Source: Candidatus Yanofskybacteria bacterium (lineage in GTDB: Bacteria > Patescibacteriota > Minisyncoccia > 2-02-FULL-40-12 > IGHO2-01-FULL-4-A). Taken from it: DNA of 64,000 nt. The stretch is from positions 259,519 to 323,518 of the forward strand of contig JACOZV010000001.1 of assembly GCA_016181175.1 (NCBI GenBank), in the 5' to 3' direction. This document shows, piece by piece, positions 7,129 to 62,956 of this stretch; the stretch's first letter is position 1; the number at the start of each line of letters is the position of its first letter. Below the pieces are notes generated by a model. That model was not told the DNA's origin, did no database searches, and saw nothing but the letters and a program-made list of their open reading frames with translations. Both the position numbers and the translations under genes were made by a program.

Positions 7129-7330
7129 CCATTATGCCTCATAGCACCGTCAAAAGAGTGGATTGTCCCGATTCTGCTTTGCAGAATCGAGGATCCTCGA
7201 TTTTCATGAATGAAAATCGGGACATGGTTTGCGAGCAGTATAATATTTCCTCACTGCGAGCAAAATCCACGCTTTTGACGGAATGTAGAATTCTCGCTGG
7301 GAATTCAAATGGTGATAGGAGGTATAATGG
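7129..7330 (-). repeat. Family E element (E2) with a nested family F insertion (7166-7222)
   Basis: Near-identical reverse complement of 28025-28167 plus a 57-bp two-hairpin insert; enclosed by a further E1-like inverted repeat (about 7075-7094 / 7354-7373). Confidence 0.85.
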
Positions 7331-45289: not shown

Positions 45290-45574
45290 ATGAATCCCAA
45301 ACGAGACAGCAAAACCATGTTTTATACATATGTTTTAAGAAATAAAAAAAGCCGCTTTTATGTTGGTTTTACTTATGATTTACGGAAACGCTTCAATGAA
45401 CATAATAATAAAAAATCAACTTATACAAAATATCGTGGCCCATACGAACTTATTTACTATGAAGCTTGTCTTGATGAGAATGACGCTCGTTAAAGAGAAA
45501 AGTATTTTAAATCTGGAACAGGTAAACGCTACTTCAAAAACAGATTGAAGCGTTTCCTGTCTCGTACTGGATGA
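45290..45574 (+). pseudogene. GIY-YIG endonuclease with a single in-frame TAA (45491-45493)
   Basis: FYTYVL..FYVGFT.DLRKR..EHN..DAR*REKYFKSG..FLSRTG*; terminal TGA overlaps the secF ATG. Confidence 0.85.
45294..45572 (+). mobile_element. Family A element carrying a GIY-YIG nuclease (A4) between secD and secF
   Basis: ATCCCAAACGAGACAG ... CTGTCTCGTACTGGAT; GA duplication; supplies the secF ATG. Confidence 0.85.
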
Positions 45575-51077: not shown

Positions 51078-52364
51078 ATGGCTACTCATAAATGGATTCC
51101 GTGGCCGGGCATAGGACAGGTGGACAAGGGGAGCATCTCTCCGGTTGTAGACAATCATTTTTTCCGACGTTTGAGCGATAAGCGCCAGCTCGCTTTCAGT
51201 TACTTGGTTTTTCCCGGGGCGACACATGACCGCCGTCAGCATTCAATGGGCGCTTACATTAAAACTTGCGAGTTTACCGCGCGGATGGTTGAGCGCGGTT
51301 TTTTAACCAAAAAACAAGCCTTGAACCTCGGCCTTTACGCACTGTTACACGATATCGGCCACGGTCCCTTTTCTCATATTATAGAACCGTTTACCAAGAT
51401 TAACCACAAGGAATACGGCCTTAAGATTGTGGATAGGATGACGGATGATATTAAAAAATGCGGCGGTGATATTAAGCTGATAAAAAGCTATATGAAAAAA
51501 AAGGATCCGGCTTGGCGGATAGTCAGCGATAAGAATTTTGGCATGGAAAAAATGGATTACCTGGTTCGCGATCAAGAAGCGACAGAATTCGGCCCTAATA
51601 TACGTCGCTGTGTGGAGAGCGTTTTTAACCATTTGGAATATAAAAACGGCAGTCTTACGGTTGATTTAAAAGCGTTGGATGCGGCTATTGAAATACAGAG
51701 AGCTTACATCTATTTTTACAGAAACGTTCATCTGGAGAAAAGCGCCTATTTAATCCAGCGTTTTATGCAGAAGCTGATGTACAGATTACTCAATACGCCC
51801 AAAAAACTCGGTGGGATTACCGAAGACGAGCTGTGGGAGATGGTAGACGGCGACTTGATTCATGCTTTGAAAAAATGCCGTGACGAGACCGTCAGAAATG
51901 GCATAGCGATTTTTGATAACGGTGTGCGCCATTTTCCAAAGACTGCTTTGGCAATCCGTTTAACAGGATATAAGTGGCTTGAACGGCGCGCTGGCAAGCA
52001 GATAAAGGTTGTTGAAGCTGATAAGAAATTTTTTGATAAGTTTTTTGTAAAATCCAGCGCCGCCGATTTGGAAAAAATAGAAACAGCAATTGCCAAATTG
52101 TTGGGCATAGAAAGTTGGAAAATGGCCGTAAGCCATATAGTGGAGAAAAACCGCTTTATTCCAGAGGATATTTTATTTTTTGACGGACCGAAAACTTATT
52201 CATTAAAACAGCAAGATCCGAGTTATTTTGAACTTCTTGAAAAAGAATTGGATAAATATTTGTGTGTCAGGGTCTGCGTGGTGCCTGAACATCGCCAGGC
52301 GCTATATTCCAAATGGAAAGAAGTTTTTGATCTTGTTTGCAAATATGTTGGTCATAAACCATAA
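51078..52364 (+). CDS. HD-domain phosphohydrolase (SAMHD1/dNTP triphosphohydrolase-like)
   Basis: RL...QL..LVFPGATH.R..HSMG, LLHDIGHGPFSH, MDYLVRD. Confidence 0.85.
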   Translation: MATHKWIPWPGIGQVDKGSISPVVDNHFFRRLSDKRQLAFSYLVFPGATHDRRQHSMGAYIKTCEFTARMVERGFLTKKQALNLGLYALLHDIGHGPFSHIIEPFTKINHKEYGLKIVDRMTDDIKKCGGDIKLIKSYMKKKDPAWRIVSDKNFGMEKMDYLVRDQEATEFGPNIRRCVESVFNHLEYKNGSLTVDLKALDAAIEIQRAYIYFYRNVHLEKSAYLIQRFMQKLMYRLLNTPKKLGGITEDELWEMVDGDLIHALKKCRDETVRNGIAIFDNGVRHFPKTALAIRLTGYKWLERRAGKQIKVVEADKKFFDKFFVKSSAADLEKIETAIAKLLGIESWKMAVSHIVEKNRFIPEDILFFDGPKTYSLKQQDPSYFELLEKELDKYLCVRVCVVPEHRQALYSKWKEVFDLVCKYVGHKP

Positions 52365-52398
52365 AACCGGCTTAAGCCGGTTTTATGGTTTATGAGGG

Positions 52399-52671
52399 TC
52401 CGTCCACCAGGAATCGAACCTGGAACCTTCTCCTTAAAAGGGAGCTGTCCTGGTTTTGTAAACAAAATCGAGGATTCTCGATACAAAGTCCGTCCACCAG
52501 GAATCGAACCTGGAACCTTCTCCTTAAAAGGGAGCTGCTCTACCAATTGAGCTATGGACGGACTTTGTATCGGAACTCTTCCGGGGAATTTTTTGACGGA
52601 AATCGAGACGATTTCCTAAAATTACCGTCAAAGCCAAGCAGTTGGTTTTGACCCAACTGAGCTAAGGGCGG
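52399..52671 (-). pseudogene. Outer, interrupted tRNA-Lys(UUU) gene in three pieces
   Basis: 5' piece CCGCCCTTAGCTCAGTTGG (52671-52653), AGAG (52579-52576), 3' piece 52447-52399 identical to the inner tRNA. Confidence 0.65.
52489..52561 (-). tRNA. tRNA-Lys (anticodon UUU), intact, no encoded CCA
   Basis: CCGTCCA/TGGACGG acceptor stem, GCTC/GAGC D arm, CTTTTAA anticodon loop, CCAGG-TTCGATT-CCTGG T arm. Confidence 0.92.
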
Positions 52672-52679
52672 AAAGTAAC

Positions 52680-52708
52680 ATTCTAGCATAGAAAACGAGT
52701 TTACTCAA
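52680..52708 (-). promoter_or_regulatory. Sigma-70 promoter of the tRNA locus
   Basis: TTGAGT-17 nt-TAGAAT with an extended TG, 8 nt upstream of the outer tRNA 5' end. Confidence 0.7.
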
Positions 52709-52864
52709 TAAAAAAGCCTCGTGTGCATGAGCTACACGAGGCTTGCCAGTTCAGTATGGAACTTGACGGTTTACTGCTTGGGGCTTGTCCGAGGAATACT
52801 CATGTCTAGCCCGAGCTCTCTTGCCGTTTTGGTGGATAGCACAGTCAGCACTATCCTGTTGTGA

Positions 52865-53938
52865 TTACTTTTGTGGCAATTGGAGAAAAGGAATAGCTCC
52901 ACCACCATTGTAGGTCGGTAGGTTGCCGTTCCATTTGACGATCGCCTGGCCTTGTAGCTCTAGGCGTCGCCACTCCAGGAGTGTTGGCGAGAGCGAACTC
53001 GTGAGGATCTTGTTTGACTCCGCTTCGCCTTCGGCTGCTGCGATTCGTTTCTGTGCCTCTGCCCTAGAGGTTCGCAATTGGTTCTCCGCCATGATGGCTT
53101 GCTGGATGGCCCTTACCTTTTCGTTGATTGCGTCCACAACTGCTTGAGGTGGTCGTGGTGCACCAATGAAACCGAACTGATCGAGAATTACCCCCTGCGG
53201 CTCCAGTTCTTCTTGGAGGGCCTTCCTGGTATCTGCCAGGAACTTAGCGTTGTCGCCCATGATGTCCTCTATTTTATACTTGCCGGCTATGTTGTCGAAC
53301 TTCTCGCGGGCCATGTTACGGAGAAAACCGTGCGTAAACGTTTGCAGATCGTCAGACCTGAACTTGACGTAAAATGCAGGCACTTTCTCTGCAACGAGAT
53401 GGTAGGCCAAACTGATGTCCGCGTCCACCTTCATCTGGTCACCGGTGGTGAACGTAATTTCCTCATTCACCGGATTTCCTTCTTCAAGCGACTTTGTCCA
53501 GGCCACTGTTTGGACGAAGGTAGGATATTCCTCAATTTCTGTCGAAATCGGGTTGTAAAATACCCAGCCCGTTTTCAATGTGAAGTCCTGAACTCCACGC
53601 TGGCTGCCAGCAAGATCCACTTCAATCCCCACATGGCCAGGGCCGATCCGCGTACAGCCACTGCCGGCTAGCATTGAAGAAGCAACCGCCAAAATAATGA
53701 CGGCTGACCTTACGTTGTCTTCCCTCTGCTCGCCAGTCAGGCATGGCTTCAGTATCCTTTTGCAGTAGTAGAATCCGCAAATTCCGACTGTGAGCAGAAT
53801 CGCTACACCCTCGACGACGCCAGCGTCGCTCGGTGAGTTGATCAGAGCGAAAGCGAAGTTAACGACCCGGATGGCGACAAGACCTAAAACGATCGTCAGA
53901 ACAACGGTTCAGACACTAAACTTCTTTCGTATCCGCAT
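52865..53938 (-). pseudogene. SPFH/band 7 (prohibitin) membrane protein with an in-frame TGA at codon 10
   Basis: PGHVGI.V, R.P..V..AI..K..A.Q, EA.K.IA.AEGEA, KWNG.LP; AGGAG-preceded ATG at 53938 is in frame except for TGA at 53911-53909. Confidence 0.75.
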
Positions 53939-54065
53939 GAGATTTCTCCTTCTGCTATTTTTAGGCCTTTTGCCTCGGCATAGCTACCAGTTTGGTTGTC
54001 AGCGAACTACTTCTACATTCTAACAAACAGCTACATTTTTGTCAAACAAGACAACGACTCAAAAA

Positions 54066-57879: not shown

Positions 57880-59703
57880 ATGCCGGAACAGACACAGCCA
57901 CACCCGCTGCGCAGATTTATTATTTCCCTTAAGTTATACAGGGCACACATAGGATTGGGTAGTAACGAAAAGCTTATTAAGTTTGTTGATGAGCTTGTTC
58001 AAAGTGCTGAAAGAATTGAAACAAGGCAGGAGGCATCGGGCAGATCGGTTGGGTTAAGTTTTGAGTTTTTAGATTCAGTTTGCGGTTTCCTTTATAACCA
58101 ACTGCAAAAAGTAACAGCAGAAAACAATAAAAATAAGGCCGAAGCCAATAAATTATTGGAAAACCTGAAAAGTGCCGTTGAAGAAATAAAAGCTCTTCAA
58201 CGCCCTCCCCATTCGTTTGTTTTTTTTCAGAAGTTGGAAGAAAGAGGTGGCGAATTTTGGATTCGTACAAAAGATAGTACTGCTTTAGTATTTTCAGACG
58301 AATTGGTTGAGAAACTAAAAACCGCCAAAGCGGGCCAAAAGGTTCGGCTCAACGAATCCGGTGTAGCCATAGAATTGTTGGACGAGTTTGATAAAGACGG
58401 CGACATGGTGCAAGTTCTCGAGTTGTTGGGTGACAACCGATTGAGGGTTAGCCAAGAAAATAGGGGTGAAAGCATAGTTTTTATTTCTCCTTGTGTCCAA
58501 GAGGCGGATCTCAAAATAGGCGATAAGGTTTTACTTTCGCGATATAACAATTTAGTTACTGAAAAATTGTCCAGCTCCGAAGTAACCGAACTGGTTTTGC
58601 ATAAAGTTCCTAATTATACCTGGGATGATATTGGTGGTTTGGAAGAACAAATTGGTGCGTGGCGGGACGAAGTTGAAACCAACCTGGTTGATCCCGAATC
58701 AGCCAAAATTTACGGAATTGAGCAAACGAAAGGCGTTTTAATTACCGGTCCGCCCGGAGTCGGTAAGACTTTTCTCGTAAAAGTCGCGCTTAGCGAAACC
58801 GTAAAGTTTGTTAATCAGCAAACAGGCAGAAATATCGAGGGTTTTTATATCCTTGTAAACGGTCCAGCCGATATTTTGCGCGGTATTGTGGGGGATTCGC
58901 CGCGGCGAATCCAATATCTTTTCGCTGAAGCCAAAAGAAGGGCCAAGGAAGGCCATTTGGTTTTTATAATTTTGGATGAGTTCGAATCGTTATTTAGAAT
59001 ACGCGGCTCAATGGTTTTGGATGCCGGGGTTGGCAATGAAGATGTTAACCAGTTAAATGCTGAAATGGACGGCATTGAAGAATTGGATGGCGTACTGGTT
59101 GTGGCTTTGTCAAACAGGGCTGACCTAATTGACCCCGCCGTAATCAGACCCGGCAGGTTTGATCTCAAGATAGAAATTCCGAGATATGATAAAAAAACTG
59201 CCGCCAAAGTCTTTAGCAAATACATCAAACCGACACTCAAGTTCCATCACCAATATAAAAATCAAGACCCGGAACAAACTGCAAACCTGTTTGTTAACAA
59301 CATCGTTGATCTGTGTTATGACAGTCAGAGACCAGAAAATCAGCTGGCAGAAGTCATAGATGATGACTCCGGAGAATCTATCGTGTTCACTATTGGCAAC
59401 TTTATGTCCGGAGCTTTGATTAAAAACATAGTTTCAAGGGCAAAAAAAATTGCCCGTCGCCGGTTTGTGAATATTCCCAAAGAACAAGGCGAGAAAAGAG
59501 AATTAGAAGGGCTTATGTTGGACGACTTTTTCCAATCCATTGCAATAATTATCAGAAGCGAAATTAAATTACCGACCGGCGAGCAGGCACTAGAAGAATG
59601 GCTTCAAATTGAAGGTTATCAACACAGAAAAATAAGAAGAATGCGTTTTCTTTTGGACAAGAAAGATCCGTCCCGGACACCGGAACGCAGGGTCATGTCT
59701 TAA
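57880..59703 (+). CDS. arc: Proteasome-associated AAA+ ATPase (ARC/Mpa family)
   Basis: Coiled coil plus OB-like region (LQRPP, GQKVRLNE), DIGGL..QI, GPPGVGKT, LDEFES, SNR.DLIDPA.IRPGRFD, FMSGA.I.NIV.RAK; locus context. Confidence 0.9.
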   Translation: MPEQTQPHPLRRFIISLKLYRAHIGLGSNEKLIKFVDELVQSAERIETRQEASGRSVGLSFEFLDSVCGFLYNQLQKVTAENNKNKAEANKLLENLKSAVEEIKALQRPPHSFVFFQKLEERGGEFWIRTKDSTALVFSDELVEKLKTAKAGQKVRLNESGVAIELLDEFDKDGDMVQVLELLGDNRLRVSQENRGESIVFISPCVQEADLKIGDKVLLSRYNNLVTEKLSSSEVTELVLHKVPNYTWDDIGGLEEQIGAWRDEVETNLVDPESAKIYGIEQTKGVLITGPPGVGKTFLVKVALSETVKFVNQQTGRNIEGFYILVNGPADILRGIVGDSPRRIQYLFAEAKRRAKEGHLVFIILDEFESLFRIRGSMVLDAGVGNEDVNQLNAEMDGIEELDGVLVVALSNRADLIDPAVIRPGRFDLKIEIPRYDKKTAAKVFSKYIKPTLKFHHQYKNQDPEQTANLFVNNIVDLCYDSQRPENQLAEVIDDDSGESIVFTIGNFMSGALIKNIVSRAKKIARRRFVNIPKEQGEKRELEGLMLDDFFQSIAIIIRSEIKLPTGEQALEEWLQIEGYQHRKIRRMRFLLDKKDPSRTPERRVMS

Positions 59704-59713
59704 TAAAATAAAT

Positions 59714-59743
59714 AAAACCTCGCTTTACTTGGCGAGGTTTTTT
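59714..59743 (+). terminator. Intrinsic terminator after arc
   Basis: AAAACCTCGC/GCGAGGTTTT hairpin plus T tract. Confidence 0.65.
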
Positions 59744-59789
59744 ACTTAGAGTGGTTTAATTAGTGCAGATCTTTAAAAACGAGAGGAAT

Positions 59790-61445
59790 ATGAGTATTAA
59801 AAAAATTGTTGGAATAGAAACCGAGCTAAGACTTGACTGCGTCGATCCCGAAAATGACAAAAACCGAAAGAATTCTGGAGAATTGGAAGATTACGTGCTT
59901 CCGGGGAGTGTTGTTAAAAACGCGTTGAGCCAATCTGGTGGAGTTGTCGCCGTTGGTTCCGACACGCAACCCGCAAATTTGCAAAAAAATTTGGCGATTG
60001 TGGAAAATTTAAAAAAACTTTATCCGTCGTCACAAAAAGCCATACAAGAGCATTTGGAAAACAGAAGCGCAAGAAAGCGGGACCGTGGCATATCTGAAGA
60101 AGACTGCCTTGATACATATCAAAGATTTGGCCTTTCGGGCGGTTATACGTTTTCGGGTTTTAGGATTTATGTTGATGGAACTCATCCCGAAGTGTCAACG
60201 CCTGAATGTGCCACTCCTTTTGATTTGGTTTGCCGGCAAAAAGCCGGGGAAAGGATCATAGAAGAGGGCAGAAAGAAAACCGAAGAAGAAACCGGACGAC
60301 GGATTACGCTTTCGGCTGACAACAGCGACGGTTTGGGGGGAAGCTGGGGTTCTCACGAAAATTACCTTGTAAGCGATGAGCTTTTCGAGAGCCTTACTGA
60401 GGAAGGATGCCACCGTCACGATTTTCGCAGAACCCTTAATTCATATCAGGACTTTTGGGCCTCTTTTTTGGTGACACGTTTTGTATTTTGTGGTTCTGGC
60501 AAAATGGGCAGTGAAATTGACCAGGATTTGGAAAATAAATTTTTGATTTCGCAAAGAGCGGAGTTTATAAGCTGTAATTTTAGTCATAGAACCATGGAAC
60601 ACCGTCCCATTATAAATCTGCGCGATATTCCTTATGTTGGACCCGGATTTGGCCGGAGGCTGCACGTAATAATTGGTGACTCTAACATGTGTGAACCGGC
60701 AATTTACCTAAAAGTTGGCACGGCGATGATAATGCTGATGATGTTAGAAGATAATTTTATTTCTGAAGGTTCTTTCCCTATTTTTGAAAAACCGGTTAAA
60801 GCCTTGCAAACCGTCATGTCTGACGTTGATTGCTCCAATCTCCTAGATGTCTATGTTGGCGGTCAGTTTAGACACATGACCGCGATAGATATACAGAAGT
60901 TTTTTTGCGAATTGGCGGCAAAATGGCTTGAAGAACGTTTTAAAAATACCAGCGACAAAAAATCTGTTTCTTGGGTTTCGGAAGTTTTGTTCAGATTAGA
61001 TCAAGTTTTGACCAAGTTAAAAAATGATCCCATGGATCTTTTTGGCACAATTGACTGGGTGACCAAGTATGGCTTATGTTGTTCTGAACTTGAAAACCGA
61101 AATGCTGGTTGGACAGACGTAACCTCGCGTTCGAACCCGCTATTTCGCCGTTTGATCGGGATATGCGGCGCATATCATAGGTTAGACGAACTTGGCATAT
61201 ACAATAAATTAGAAGAAGCTCAAGAAGTTGAACGTATTGTTCAGGACGTTAATATTCACATTGCTTGTCTTGAGCCGCCGCAAGGCACCAGGGCTTTTGA
61301 GAGGGGCAAATTTCTTAGACATTTCAGGGACGACATATATCTTGTAAACTGGAACCTCATTTGCATTAAACGCAATCCTTACAAAATATTTCTAAACAGT
61401 CCATATTCATTTTCACCCGCTTTAGATGTGGAGCAAGAATCATGA
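59790..61445 (+). CDS. dop: Pup ligase/deamidase family protein, Dop-like
   Basis: GIETE, YVDGTHPEVSTPEC, NSDG.G.SWGSHENYL, ISQRA.F, RPIIN.RD.P, RRLHVIIGDSNM; long Dop-loop-like insertion. The Dop versus PafA assignment is an inference. Confidence 0.75.
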   Translation: MSIKKIVGIETELRLDCVDPENDKNRKNSGELEDYVLPGSVVKNALSQSGGVVAVGSDTQPANLQKNLAIVENLKKLYPSSQKAIQEHLENRSARKRDRGISEEDCLDTYQRFGLSGGYTFSGFRIYVDGTHPEVSTPECATPFDLVCRQKAGERIIEEGRKKTEEETGRRITLSADNSDGLGGSWGSHENYLVSDELFESLTEEGCHRHDFRRTLNSYQDFWASFLVTRFVFCGSGKMGSEIDQDLENKFLISQRAEFISCNFSHRTMEHRPIINLRDIPYVGPGFGRRLHVIIGDSNMCEPAIYLKVGTAMIMLMMLEDNFISEGSFPIFEKPVKALQTVMSDVDCSNLLDVYVGGQFRHMTAIDIQKFFCELAAKWLEERFKNTSDKKSVSWVSEVLFRLDQVLTKLKNDPMDLFGTIDWVTKYGLCCSELENRNAGWTDVTSRSNPLFRRLIGICGAYHRLDELGIYNKLEEAQEVERIVQDVNIHIACLEPPQGTRAFERGKFLRHFRDDIYLVNWNLICIKRNPYKIFLNSPYSFSPALDVEQES

Positions 61446-62956
61446 AACCACTAACCAGTTTTGCATGTGAGCTGGACCGGATTTACGGTACGGAAACAGA
61501 ATACGGCCTCTATTGGAATACCAATAAAACCGACATTTTTGATTTGATGGATAGAAATTTTGCTCTATCCATTACGGATTATGAAAACCTTTTTAACTGT
61601 TTTGATAACTTAAATTTTAGTCGATTGTCCGAATTTTTTGTTCAAAATGGCGGTTTAATCAAGAAAGATAATCCAAATGATTACTGTGATTGTACGCCAG
61701 AATTTGCCACACCGGAATGTAAATCAGCCAGAGACGCGGTTTGTTGGGAAAAAGCCGGGGAAATAATAATGCGGGGCTTGTTCGATCTTTCAGGTGCGAA
61801 TAATTCTGTTTTTTTGATGGTCAAGCACGGCCGCGGCATGGCAAATTATTGGGGTTTGGACGGCACAGTAGTGGAAGTTTCTTGCGGCCATCATGAAAAT
61901 TATTCATATGACGAAGAACTTAAAGCAAGATTAAAAAAAGACAGCTGGGAATCCTGCGTATTTGTTTCGTTTCTTGCCTCGCGTATTCTATTTAGCGGAG
62001 CAGGTTGGTTGGATTCAAAAGGTTTGGGTTATAAGTTAAGTCAACGGGTTGATTTTTTAGAACAAATTAAAGGTTTGAGCACAACCGAAAAACGAGCCCT
62101 GATTTGTACTCGTGATGAACCATTGGGAACACTAAGTCCGCCACGATTGCATCTTATTGCCGGCGATCATTTAATGTCGGAAGTGGCCTTGTATTTAACC
62201 CTTGGATCCACGGGTTTGGTTGTGAGGATGTTGGAATCGGGATACGATTTTGCCGGTGTGCCAATTTTGGAAAATCCGATTTTGGCCTTGCGTATATTTA
62301 ATTCGGACCCGTTGTTAAAAAATAAGGCAATGCTTAGCGGACTCCAAAAAGAAATAACTGCTCTTGAAATTCAGGAATATTTTTGTGCCAGAGCCGGTGA
62401 GTTTATTAATTGTAACCCGTCGACTGAAGAAGAAAATGATATTGTAGCCTATTGGGCAAGCGTGCTGAAGCGTCTCAAAAAAGATATTTACTCTCTTTAT
62501 GGTGAACTCGACTGGGTTACCAAATTGTGTTTAATGGAATCTTATTTGGAAAAATACGGCATTTGTCCCGAGAGGATTAGGGAGACCAATGGTTTGCCGC
62601 TAGAAACTTTAAATTGTTGCATGAGCCTTGATCTGACATATCATTTTATCACGCCTGACGGCCTGTATAACAAACTTAAAGAAGCGGGTTTGATCAAAAG
62701 GCTTCTGTCTGACGAAGAAATAACTCATGCCGTGACCAATCCGCCGCAAGATACCAGAGCAAGAATTAGGGGAGAAATGATTCAACTTATGAAGTCTGGC
62801 AAAATAGAAGGCCGAGTTGGCAATTGGAATAGCTTTAGCTTAAGTGGTCTTCCGCCGCACCAGCGTTTGGTTAGATCCGTCATAGGCATGGAAGATCCTT
62901 TTGATTTTTATTGCAAAGTATGGCAAGATCAAAAAAGATCATTAGGCTTCTCTTAA
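61442..62956 (+). CDS. pafA: Pup ligase/deamidase family protein, PafA-like
   Basis: RIYGTETEYG, QNGG, PEFATPEC, KAGE, GHHENY, LSQR, TRDEP, RLHLIAGD..MSE, LDWVTK, PPQDTRA..RG. Confidence 0.75.
   Translation: MKPLTSFACELDRIYGTETEYGLYWNTNKTDIFDLMDRNFALSITDYENLFNCFDNLNFSRLSEFFVQNGGLIKKDNPNDYCDCTPEFATPECKSARDAVCWEKAGEIIMRGLFDLSGANNSVFLMVKHGRGMANYWGLDGTVVEVSCGHHENYSYDEELKARLKKDSWESCVFVSFLASRILFSGAGWLDSKGLGYKLSQRVDFLEQIKGLSTTEKRALICTRDEPLGTLSPPRLHLIAGDHLMSEVALYLTLGSTGLVVRMLESGYDFAGVPILENPILALRIFNSDPLLKNKAMLSGLQKEITALEIQEYFCARAGEFINCNPSTEEENDIVAYWASVLKRLKKDIYSLYGELDWVTKLCLMESYLEKYGICPERIRETNGLPLETLNCCMSLDLTYHFITPDGLYNKLKEAGLIKRLLSDEEITHAVTNPPQDTRARIRGEMIQLMKSGKIEGRVGNWNSFSLSGLPPHQRLVRSVIGMEDPFDFYCKVWQDQKRSLGFS

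Follow-up and report, generated by a model that had tools for sequence, protein, structure and literature searches.

A replacement tRNA-Lys gene probably carried by a 128-bp hairpin element inside a broken tRNA-Lys gene of Candidatus Yanofskybacteria

Bacterial MITEs, the REP, REPIN and BIME repeats and the double-hairpin elements of mitochondria are all short, non-coding, multi-copy palindromes, and they nest in one another. A second group of related systems involves tRNA genes directly. In the tRNA-dependent lysogeny of actinobacteriophages, as outlined in PMC10865867, an entire prophage is the mobile unit, equipped with a tyrosine integrase and sharing a common core of about 10 bp. On a smaller scale, the Ssn nucleases are encoded by small GIY-YIG genes with their own flanking hairpin repeats (NTS/SRM), and they cut single-stranded DNA beside the hairpin (PMC11893778). 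The loop of this hairpin can be removed or extended, and the authors liken the layout to that of insertion sequences (PMC11893778). The main text of that report contains 0 mentions of tRNA, CPR or Patescibacteria, describes no cargo and does not show mobility. SegB of phage T4, a free-standing GIY-YIG enzyme, is described as recognising a tRNA gene sequence and spreading together with neighboring tRNA genes (PMC2330249). Finally, there are intron-containing, split and permuted tRNA genes, whose pieces are rejoined at the RNA level according to PMC10714607.

Here we analyse a stretch of 64,000 nucleotides (the window) from a Candidatus Yanofskybacteria genome (G000; 776 kb in 7 contigs, numbered C1 onwards below). 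From comparison of sequences, we propose that a dead tRNA-Lys(UUU) gene in this window probably contains a double-hairpin element that is mobile and non-coding and that carries a working tRNA-Lys(UUU) as its cargo.

Anatomy of the nested tRNA-Lys locus

The nest lies on the minus strand, flanked by an SPFH gene and a convergent HD-domain gene. The original prediction had read, in order, a promoter, a tRNA 5' piece, an insert in the D-loop, the letters AGAG, a 128-bp insert and a tRNA 3' piece, and all of these are present. The old tRNA gene is preceded by a sigma-70-type promoter-like site with an extended -10 (52680-52708); our site search found 3 such sites in 651 bases compared to 0.6 expected, and the intact tRNA-Lys gene of the relative G006 is also preceded by a similar one. 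The 5' piece (52653-52671, 19 nt) represents positions 1-19 of an ancestral tRNA-Lys(UUU) and matches the 5' end of the intact tRNA-Lys genes that occupy the same locus in relatives. It is also identical to the 5' end of the tRNA-Lys(CUU) gene of G000. We considered a chimera with this second gene and rejected it because the relatives' intact tRNA-Lys(UUU) genes start alike.

Insert 1 (52581-52652, 72-73 nt) is a structured, two-hairpin element with relatives in broken Ser, Leu, Lys and Ala tRNA genes of G000 and of related genomes. The insertion point of this family is after the GG of the D-loop, and D-loop base 20 was missing or changed in 7/7 copies examined. Elsewhere in G000 (C1:4010-4130, C1:7735-7850, C1:43450-43720 and C4:124905-125015), Ser and Leu tRNA genes stand behind a broken 5' copy with an insert-1-like hairpin, and at the Ser(UGA) locus an older 5' half is present in addition, with the newer copies enclosed by an 11-nt arm pair.

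After AGAG (52576-52579), which corresponds to old tRNA positions 21-24, the 128-bp double-hairpin element (52448-52575) sits between old positions 24 and 25, with neither a target duplication nor an ORF. Inside it, the complete tRNA-Lys(UUU) that had been predicted (52489-52561, CCA not encoded) was called by both ARAGORN and Rfam (70.9 bits). A 5' arm of 11 nt (52562-52572) and a 3' arm of 11 nt that starts at the discriminator base (52479-52489) lengthen its acceptor stem, and the predicted 11-bp extension is indeed paired perfectly over all 11 positions, compared to 0-2 pairs in the remaining 44 tRNA genes of G000. A conserved core of 8 nt (52471-52478), defined by family comparison, joins the two hairpins of the element. 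The second hairpin (52451-52470) is tRNA-free and, judging from its fold and from comparison with the relative G005, partly decayed. The outer 3' piece of the old tRNA follows (52398-52447) and is the same as the inner copy: 52447-52398 is an exact 50-nt copy of 52537-52488. Beyond it lies a perfect 44-bp palindrome (52352-52395), likely a two-way terminator shared with the convergent HD-domain gene, and a similar hairpin occurs in G006. In the predicted fold of the nest (z = -4.8), the inner D, T and acceptor stems sit atop an 18-bp stem.

The inner gene is the sole tRNA-Lys(UUU) found in G000, and AAA is the commonest codon in the long reading frames of this genome (5.6%). This single-copy status suggests that the inner copy complements the broken tRNA-Lys. 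The outer gene looks dead, to judge from its second insert, its lost D-loop base and its converted 3' half.

Two gene blocks of the window deserve mention in their own right. Upstream of the promoter, a GC-rich (51-54%) SPFH gene block (52865-53940, minus strand) was not found at the locus in G005 or G006. Further along the window, 57880-62956 holds a gene for a proteasome-type ATPase and, behind it, two genes of the Pup-ligase family, although the genome is of CPR size.

We compared the tRNA-Lys loci of relatives. G005, a member of the same genus, has the same nest with 91% identity over 283 bp, while G006 has one plain, intact tRNA-Lys in the same arrangement at the HD-gene locus, and an intact single gene was seen in other relatives too. 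The segment containing the promoter and the tRNA (L003:385-1499 compared to L002 and to window 52398-52710) has opposite orientations in G005 and in G006 and G000, even though the nest is common to G005 and G000; several other relatives have the G005 orientation. The nest of G000 and G005 may have been inherited rather than moved.

The two acceptor mismatches noted in the original prediction are present in G000, where the outer acceptor stem pairs 5/7. However, they appear to be secondary, because the outer 3' half in G005 pairs 7/7 with the 5' piece and differs from that genome's own inner tRNA at 9/50 positions. The outer 3' piece of G000 has 0 differences to its inner copy and 8 to the outer copy of G005. 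The exact duplicate and the acceptor mismatches in G000 would most simply be explained by gene conversion after insertion.

Sequencing data were also brought to bear on the 50-bp duplicate. Both junctions are crossed, with 0 differences, by unitigs (62, 99 and 228 bp) of run X1, which is possibly the source sample, although they reach only 29-32 letters per side of the junctions and none spans the whole nest. Three further runs of the same study contain identical or variant pieces of the nest, again with none spanning it as a whole.

A dispersed element family and its matched tRNA cargo

The core of the element was found in 3 copies in G000, in 13/26 family genomes and in up to 13 copies in one relative, compared to 0 for the reversed control. 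We fetched 57 loci for the core sites (21 + 36, leaving out the Lys site of G000) and parsed 56 distinct cores. The plan of the family is constant: short inverted ends, a hairpin, the 8-nt core and another hairpin. The tips of the hairpins are hypervariable palindromes, often with further hairpins inside. The common plan that had been pointed out for the 128-bp insert and its tRNA-free sister at 7165-7223 (plus strand) holds, and it extends across further copies. That sister is itself nested in a larger hairpin element. This larger inverted-repeat element, a target of the double-hairpin element, is represented by a full and an empty form (window 7146-7280 and G000:C1:114723-114800).

No target duplication was seen in full and empty pairs (window 7165 compared to C1:114723-114800; L124, L127, L170 and L177), and sister elements of the family also occur in non-tRNA DNA. 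The proposed TG^C insertion site turned out to be looser than claimed. A strict G^C target was rejected, as many of the 26 sites left unbounded by the parser have other flanking bases, and the 30/56 bounded sites show G^C by construction because the parser required G and C. The double-hairpin element resembles a MITE in being short, non-coding and multi-copy with inverted ends, but it lacks a target-site duplication. We found no cognate transposase with the same ends near the cores in the 57 loci, and the one weak Y1_Tnp match in G000 has other repeats. Viral contigs gave 0 matches for the armed tRNA and 0 for the element.

Other tRNAs embedded in the element were then sought, as the original prediction had proposed, and Ala, Glu, Ile and Lys(CUU) were found. 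Intact tRNAs occur at the tip in 4/56 parsed cores, and the broken gene around them is always of the matching type, namely Ala(UGC) in G001, G016 and G024, and Glu(CUC) in G016. Searching the whole class by pattern further yielded Ile in Ile and Lys(CUU) in Lys(CUU). The anticodons of cargo and host are the same in 10/10 clear cases (Lys, Ala, Glu and Ile; L075, which is ambiguous, and L054 and L024, which are unreadable, are left out of the count), matching the same-isotype complementation of tRNA-dependent lysogeny. None of the copies seen outside tRNA genes carries a tRNA. The Ala locus of G024 repeats the whole layout of the window's nest: its D-loop holds an insert-1 element, and its arm is 14 bp long. 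When the empty sites were rebuilt (n = 56), 5 of them gave an ARAGORN tRNA call spanning the joint, and these 5 were all from loaded copies. Across 401 class genomes, a generic T-loop-plus-core pattern matched 15 times, in 13 genomes, compared to 3 matches in the control, and tRNA cassettes were seen only in G000, G141 and G291 on the basis of the matched strings and 6 loci inspected. Named records with similar nests are those of Ca. Yanofskybacteria, Paceibacterota and Vogelbacteria.

To describe the arms more generally, we collected tRNA-Lys genes preceded by GT. These were found in 8/401 class genomes, at 8 loci in genome contigs and at 31 in metagenomes, duplicates included. With armed defined as a score of 7 or more, and with duplicates and loci cut by contig ends removed, 35/36 tRNA-Lys genes with GT before and AC after were armed, compared to 34/1256 cross-pairings; the search pattern fixes two of the arm pairs and some of the loci are kin. 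Remnants of an old tRNA on both sides were seen at 17/26 armed GT-selected loci, at 0/5 unarmed ones and at 0/26 unarmed loci of relatives. The corresponding numbers for any remnant were 23/26, 2/5 and 8/26, the relatives' set being not fully unbiased because 15 regions were chosen partly for long matches. Armed Lys(UUU) nests are present in at least 5/401 class genomes, and in 4/17 family genomes with the locus read (G000, G005, G003 and G024), representing three origins.

In a gap-free alignment of nine Lys cassettes of the window's family, arm cells were paired in 98/99 cases and 7/11 pairs were changed on both sides, a result equalled by 0/500 shuffles. Kinship inflates these covariation tests, yet pairing drops to 37-47% when the partners are slid. 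The difference amounts to 59% at the variable positions of the arms and to 13% in the tRNAs. The arm pairing may be kept by selection at the RNA level, or it may be remade by fold-back at the DNA level. The predicted probability of the inner acceptor stem was 0.97; shuffling the arms (30 shuffles each) lowered it to 0.74 in G000 and 0.93 in G005, suggesting a modest benefit of the arms for folding. Two pairs between leader and 3' end are reported to lower RNase P efficiency 13-fold (PMC9433436), so the 11 arm pairs may hinder processing, and the 18-bp stem must probably be opened or cut before RNase P. Armed tRNA-Lys genes were also found in other hairpin families, and arming is therefore a general habit rather than that of one element. 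In L042, L024, L036, L060 and L075 we observed armed tRNA-Arg(UCG) within tRNA-Arg and multi-layer nests with an armed tRNA-Lys re-broken and re-replaced.

Competing explanations for the nest

The idea in the original prediction that a palindromic element broke a tRNA gene and brings a replacement is supported by the intact relatives, the tRNA-free sisters and the matched payloads. We envisage that a tRNA gene in single-stranded DNA would be a closed hairpin and could in this way be both target and cargo. Where an essential tRNA gene is present in a single copy, its disruption would be survivable only if the invading element had the cognate tRNA on board. The old promoter would transcribe the nest, the arms would make the inner cloverleaf fold rather than mispair with the old halves, and host RNases and the CCA-adding enzyme would free the inner tRNA; G000 has RNase P RNA, RNase III, RNase J and a CCA/poly(A) polymerase-family gene. 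The outer halves would later gather more hairpins, among them insert 1, which most simply arrived after the rescue, and would be homogenised by gene conversion. The least certain steps are that a small GIY-YIG nuclease nicking hairpin DNA would start the movement and that the loaded cassette would spread between lineages by recombination into a matching tRNA gene.

Nine Lys cassettes of the window's family, from different genomes, align without gaps and share the same exact length and site. This argues against a local rescue, in which repair copied the tRNA gene into the tip of a hairpin, fold-back synthesis made the arms and the product was then only inherited. We consider such an origin unlikely, although several observations speak for it. 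Inner and outer copies are nearly identical in several of the GIY-YIG cassettes described below and in L127, as local duplication gives, and the 3' arm of L127 mirrors the first six bases of its tRNA. On the other hand, the cargo often differs from its host, as it does in G005 (9/50), G003, L074, L124, L170 and L177. The many unrelated arm sequences and the hypervariable palindromes at the tips of empty elements are also what a local origin would produce, but near-identical cargo tRNAs with different anticodons occur in different genomes: the inner tRNA of the window and the L074 cargo tRNA, which has the other Lys anticodon, differ at 2/72 positions.

The second alternative raised in the original prediction, that the inserts are unusual introns, with the outer tRNA respliced and the inner tRNA a by-product, is largely refuted and in our view very improbable. 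No group I or group II family was present among 20 matches at E<=10, whereas a positive control (group I, C4:72300-72606) scored 91.9 bits. Introns of groups I and II are far longer than both inserts. Both inserts are structured, and as predicted their removal in silico gave an ARAGORN-callable tRNA-Lys in G000 and G005; however, the wild-type D-loop was not regained since base 20 is lost or changed. A clean tRNA-Lys was obtained from L124, which has the sole clean, restorable outer tRNA among the family cassettes read and fits a recent insertion. Most of the outer copies have further lesions, decaying through extra hairpins, lost bases and truncations, and the outer acceptor stem of G000 is imperfect as described above. 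The sister elements in non-tRNA DNA also argue against introns, as does the result that neither the tRNA splicing endonuclease (PF01974) nor RtcB (PF01139) was found in G000, a genome rated 100% complete, although missing sequence is conceivable.

A true group I intron does interrupt a tRNA gene elsewhere in G000, which lends the intron idea some credit. This gene (C4:72253-72560, minus strand) has an intron of 235 nt (RF00028, 91.9 bits); ARAGORN calls it Thr(UGU), while its exon ends point to Asn(GUU), for which the G000 list has no other gene. Group I introns in tRNA genes of Patescibacteria are reportedly the subject of a paper.

The 50-bp direct repeat of the tRNA 3' part might suggest an attL/attR scar, left by an integrated phage or island of which just the tRNA survives, but the exact repeat is absent in G005. 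Phages that break and complement tRNA-Lys(UUU) are known (PMC10865867), and the GC-rich gene block upstream could be taken as a trace of one. However, we found no prophage with an integrase and attP/attB sites, there being no integrase near the nest, and the only tyrosine-recombinase match in G000 lies on another contig. The loci read included no longer allele with an integrase between the same ends, the insert belongs to a dispersed repeat family, and neither the element nor the armed-tRNA pattern was found in viral contigs. As the original prediction had argued, a plain scar fails to explain the locus, and we regard this origin as extremely improbable.

Misassembly around a short repeat, for which the exact 50-bp duplicate and the want of a single unitig over the whole nest could be cited, is unlikely to the point of being negligible, because the nest is present independently in G005, where the outer 3' half is different, and the X1 unitigs cross each junction with 0 differences, and the design recurs in many genomes.

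GIY-YIG nucleases and comparison with known systems

The Lys nest of G024 contains an 82-aa GIY-YIG-like gene. Searching 401 class genomes with it at E<=1e-22 gave 7 hits in 6 genomes. An intact tRNA-Lys lies close behind the gene in 7/7 hits and is armed in 4/6 measurable ones, and most of the hits are inside a broken tRNA-Lys, with a hairpin-bearing anticodon arm repeated on both sides. The small gene in these cassettes is flanked on both sides by one hairpin repeat. The best matches of the 82-aa protein were to the UPF0213 protein 1ywl (E=3e-5), TIGR01453 being below the cut-off; its motif presumably resembles the SLX1-like group more than the cd10448 Ssn clade. In L058, L065, L071, L103 and L106 the AAGGAG of the broken anticodon arm lies shortly 5' of the nuclease start and is a possible ribosome-binding site.

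G000 has 8 GIY-YIG matches, one of them in a 461-aa frame, and the clade linked to tRNA-Lys was not found in this genome. Three GIY-YIG genes lie near the cores in the 57 loci; two have unrelated ends and one is that of a separate Lys cassette. We infer a mobiliser of the double-hairpin element only indirectly, because no nuclease found near these cores shares the ends of the element.

Several other arrangements were observed in G000. In the window, a small GIY-YIG gene with an in-frame stop (45317-45530) lies between secD and secF and is bounded by another repeat. At C3:370330-370690, the intact tRNA-Gln(UUG) gene lies behind a broken 5' copy of itself and the remnant of a GIY-YIG gene, and a degenerate 3' copy follows. 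The loci C4:8100-8760, C4:81780-81970, C3:56350-56500 and C1:100690-100865 comprise a GIY-YIG gene in front of tRNA-Thr(GGU) and, behind Tyr, Ser, Val and Asp genes, structured repeats that end in a copy of the tRNA 3' end.

More broadly, and with somewhat less than even confidence, we suggest that these loci might belong to an undescribed class of hairpin mobile DNA in CPR that is driven by minimal GIY-YIG single-strand nucleases. Hairpins would invade and capture hairpins, with arm-clamped tRNA genes as cargo, and essential tRNA genes would be repeatedly replaced and moved between lineages with anticodon switching, in units down to 128 bp. Among openly accessible papers we came across no account of CPR tRNA genes that are nested or armed, although CPR homologues or repeats may be listed in the supplements to PMC11893778.

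If our reading of the locus is true, a hairpin and a tRNA with no protein gene would form about the smallest self-rescuing mobile unit. It would explain broken or duplicated CPR tRNA genes that are annotated as pseudogenes, introns or assembly errors, and it would imply that core tRNA genes turn over horizontally in genomes that are streamlined. It would also pose a processing puzzle, namely the maturation of a precursor with an 18-bp acceptor stem. The question whether small GIY-YIG nucleases mobilise hairpin repeats, as raised for Ssn (PMC11893778), would gain substrates.

How then does the locus compare to the systems described so far? Compared to MITEs and REP, REPIN or BIME repeats, the double-hairpin element has no target duplication, no cognate transposase that we could find and hypervariable tips, and it carries a functional gene as cargo. 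A layout like that of Ssn and its SRM repeats (PMC11893778) is seen in the 82-aa tRNA-Lys cassettes, while the window's element is itself gene-free. SegB is a phage enzyme that cuts double-stranded DNA, and its abstract contains neither a nested tRNA nor hairpin arms (PMC2330249); a nuclease within the unit, as in the SegB case, is absent from the window's element. With intron-containing, split and permuted tRNA genes, as described in PMC10714607, the nest has in common that pieces of a tRNA are separated by structured sequence. In contrast to those genes, the outer pieces decay here, and it is apparently the inner gene that works.

In its logic, the nest is like tRNA-dependent lysogeny as outlined in PMC10865867, seen here in miniature, a broken host tRNA apparently being complemented by the tRNA of the element. 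There, a whole prophage is involved; here, the unit is 128 bp long, has no gene and no core repeat, and holds its tRNA at the tip of a hairpin inside the old gene. As judged from sequence, the nest would thus represent a known logic, that of the self-supplied replacement tRNA, in an unusually small form for which we found no prior description.
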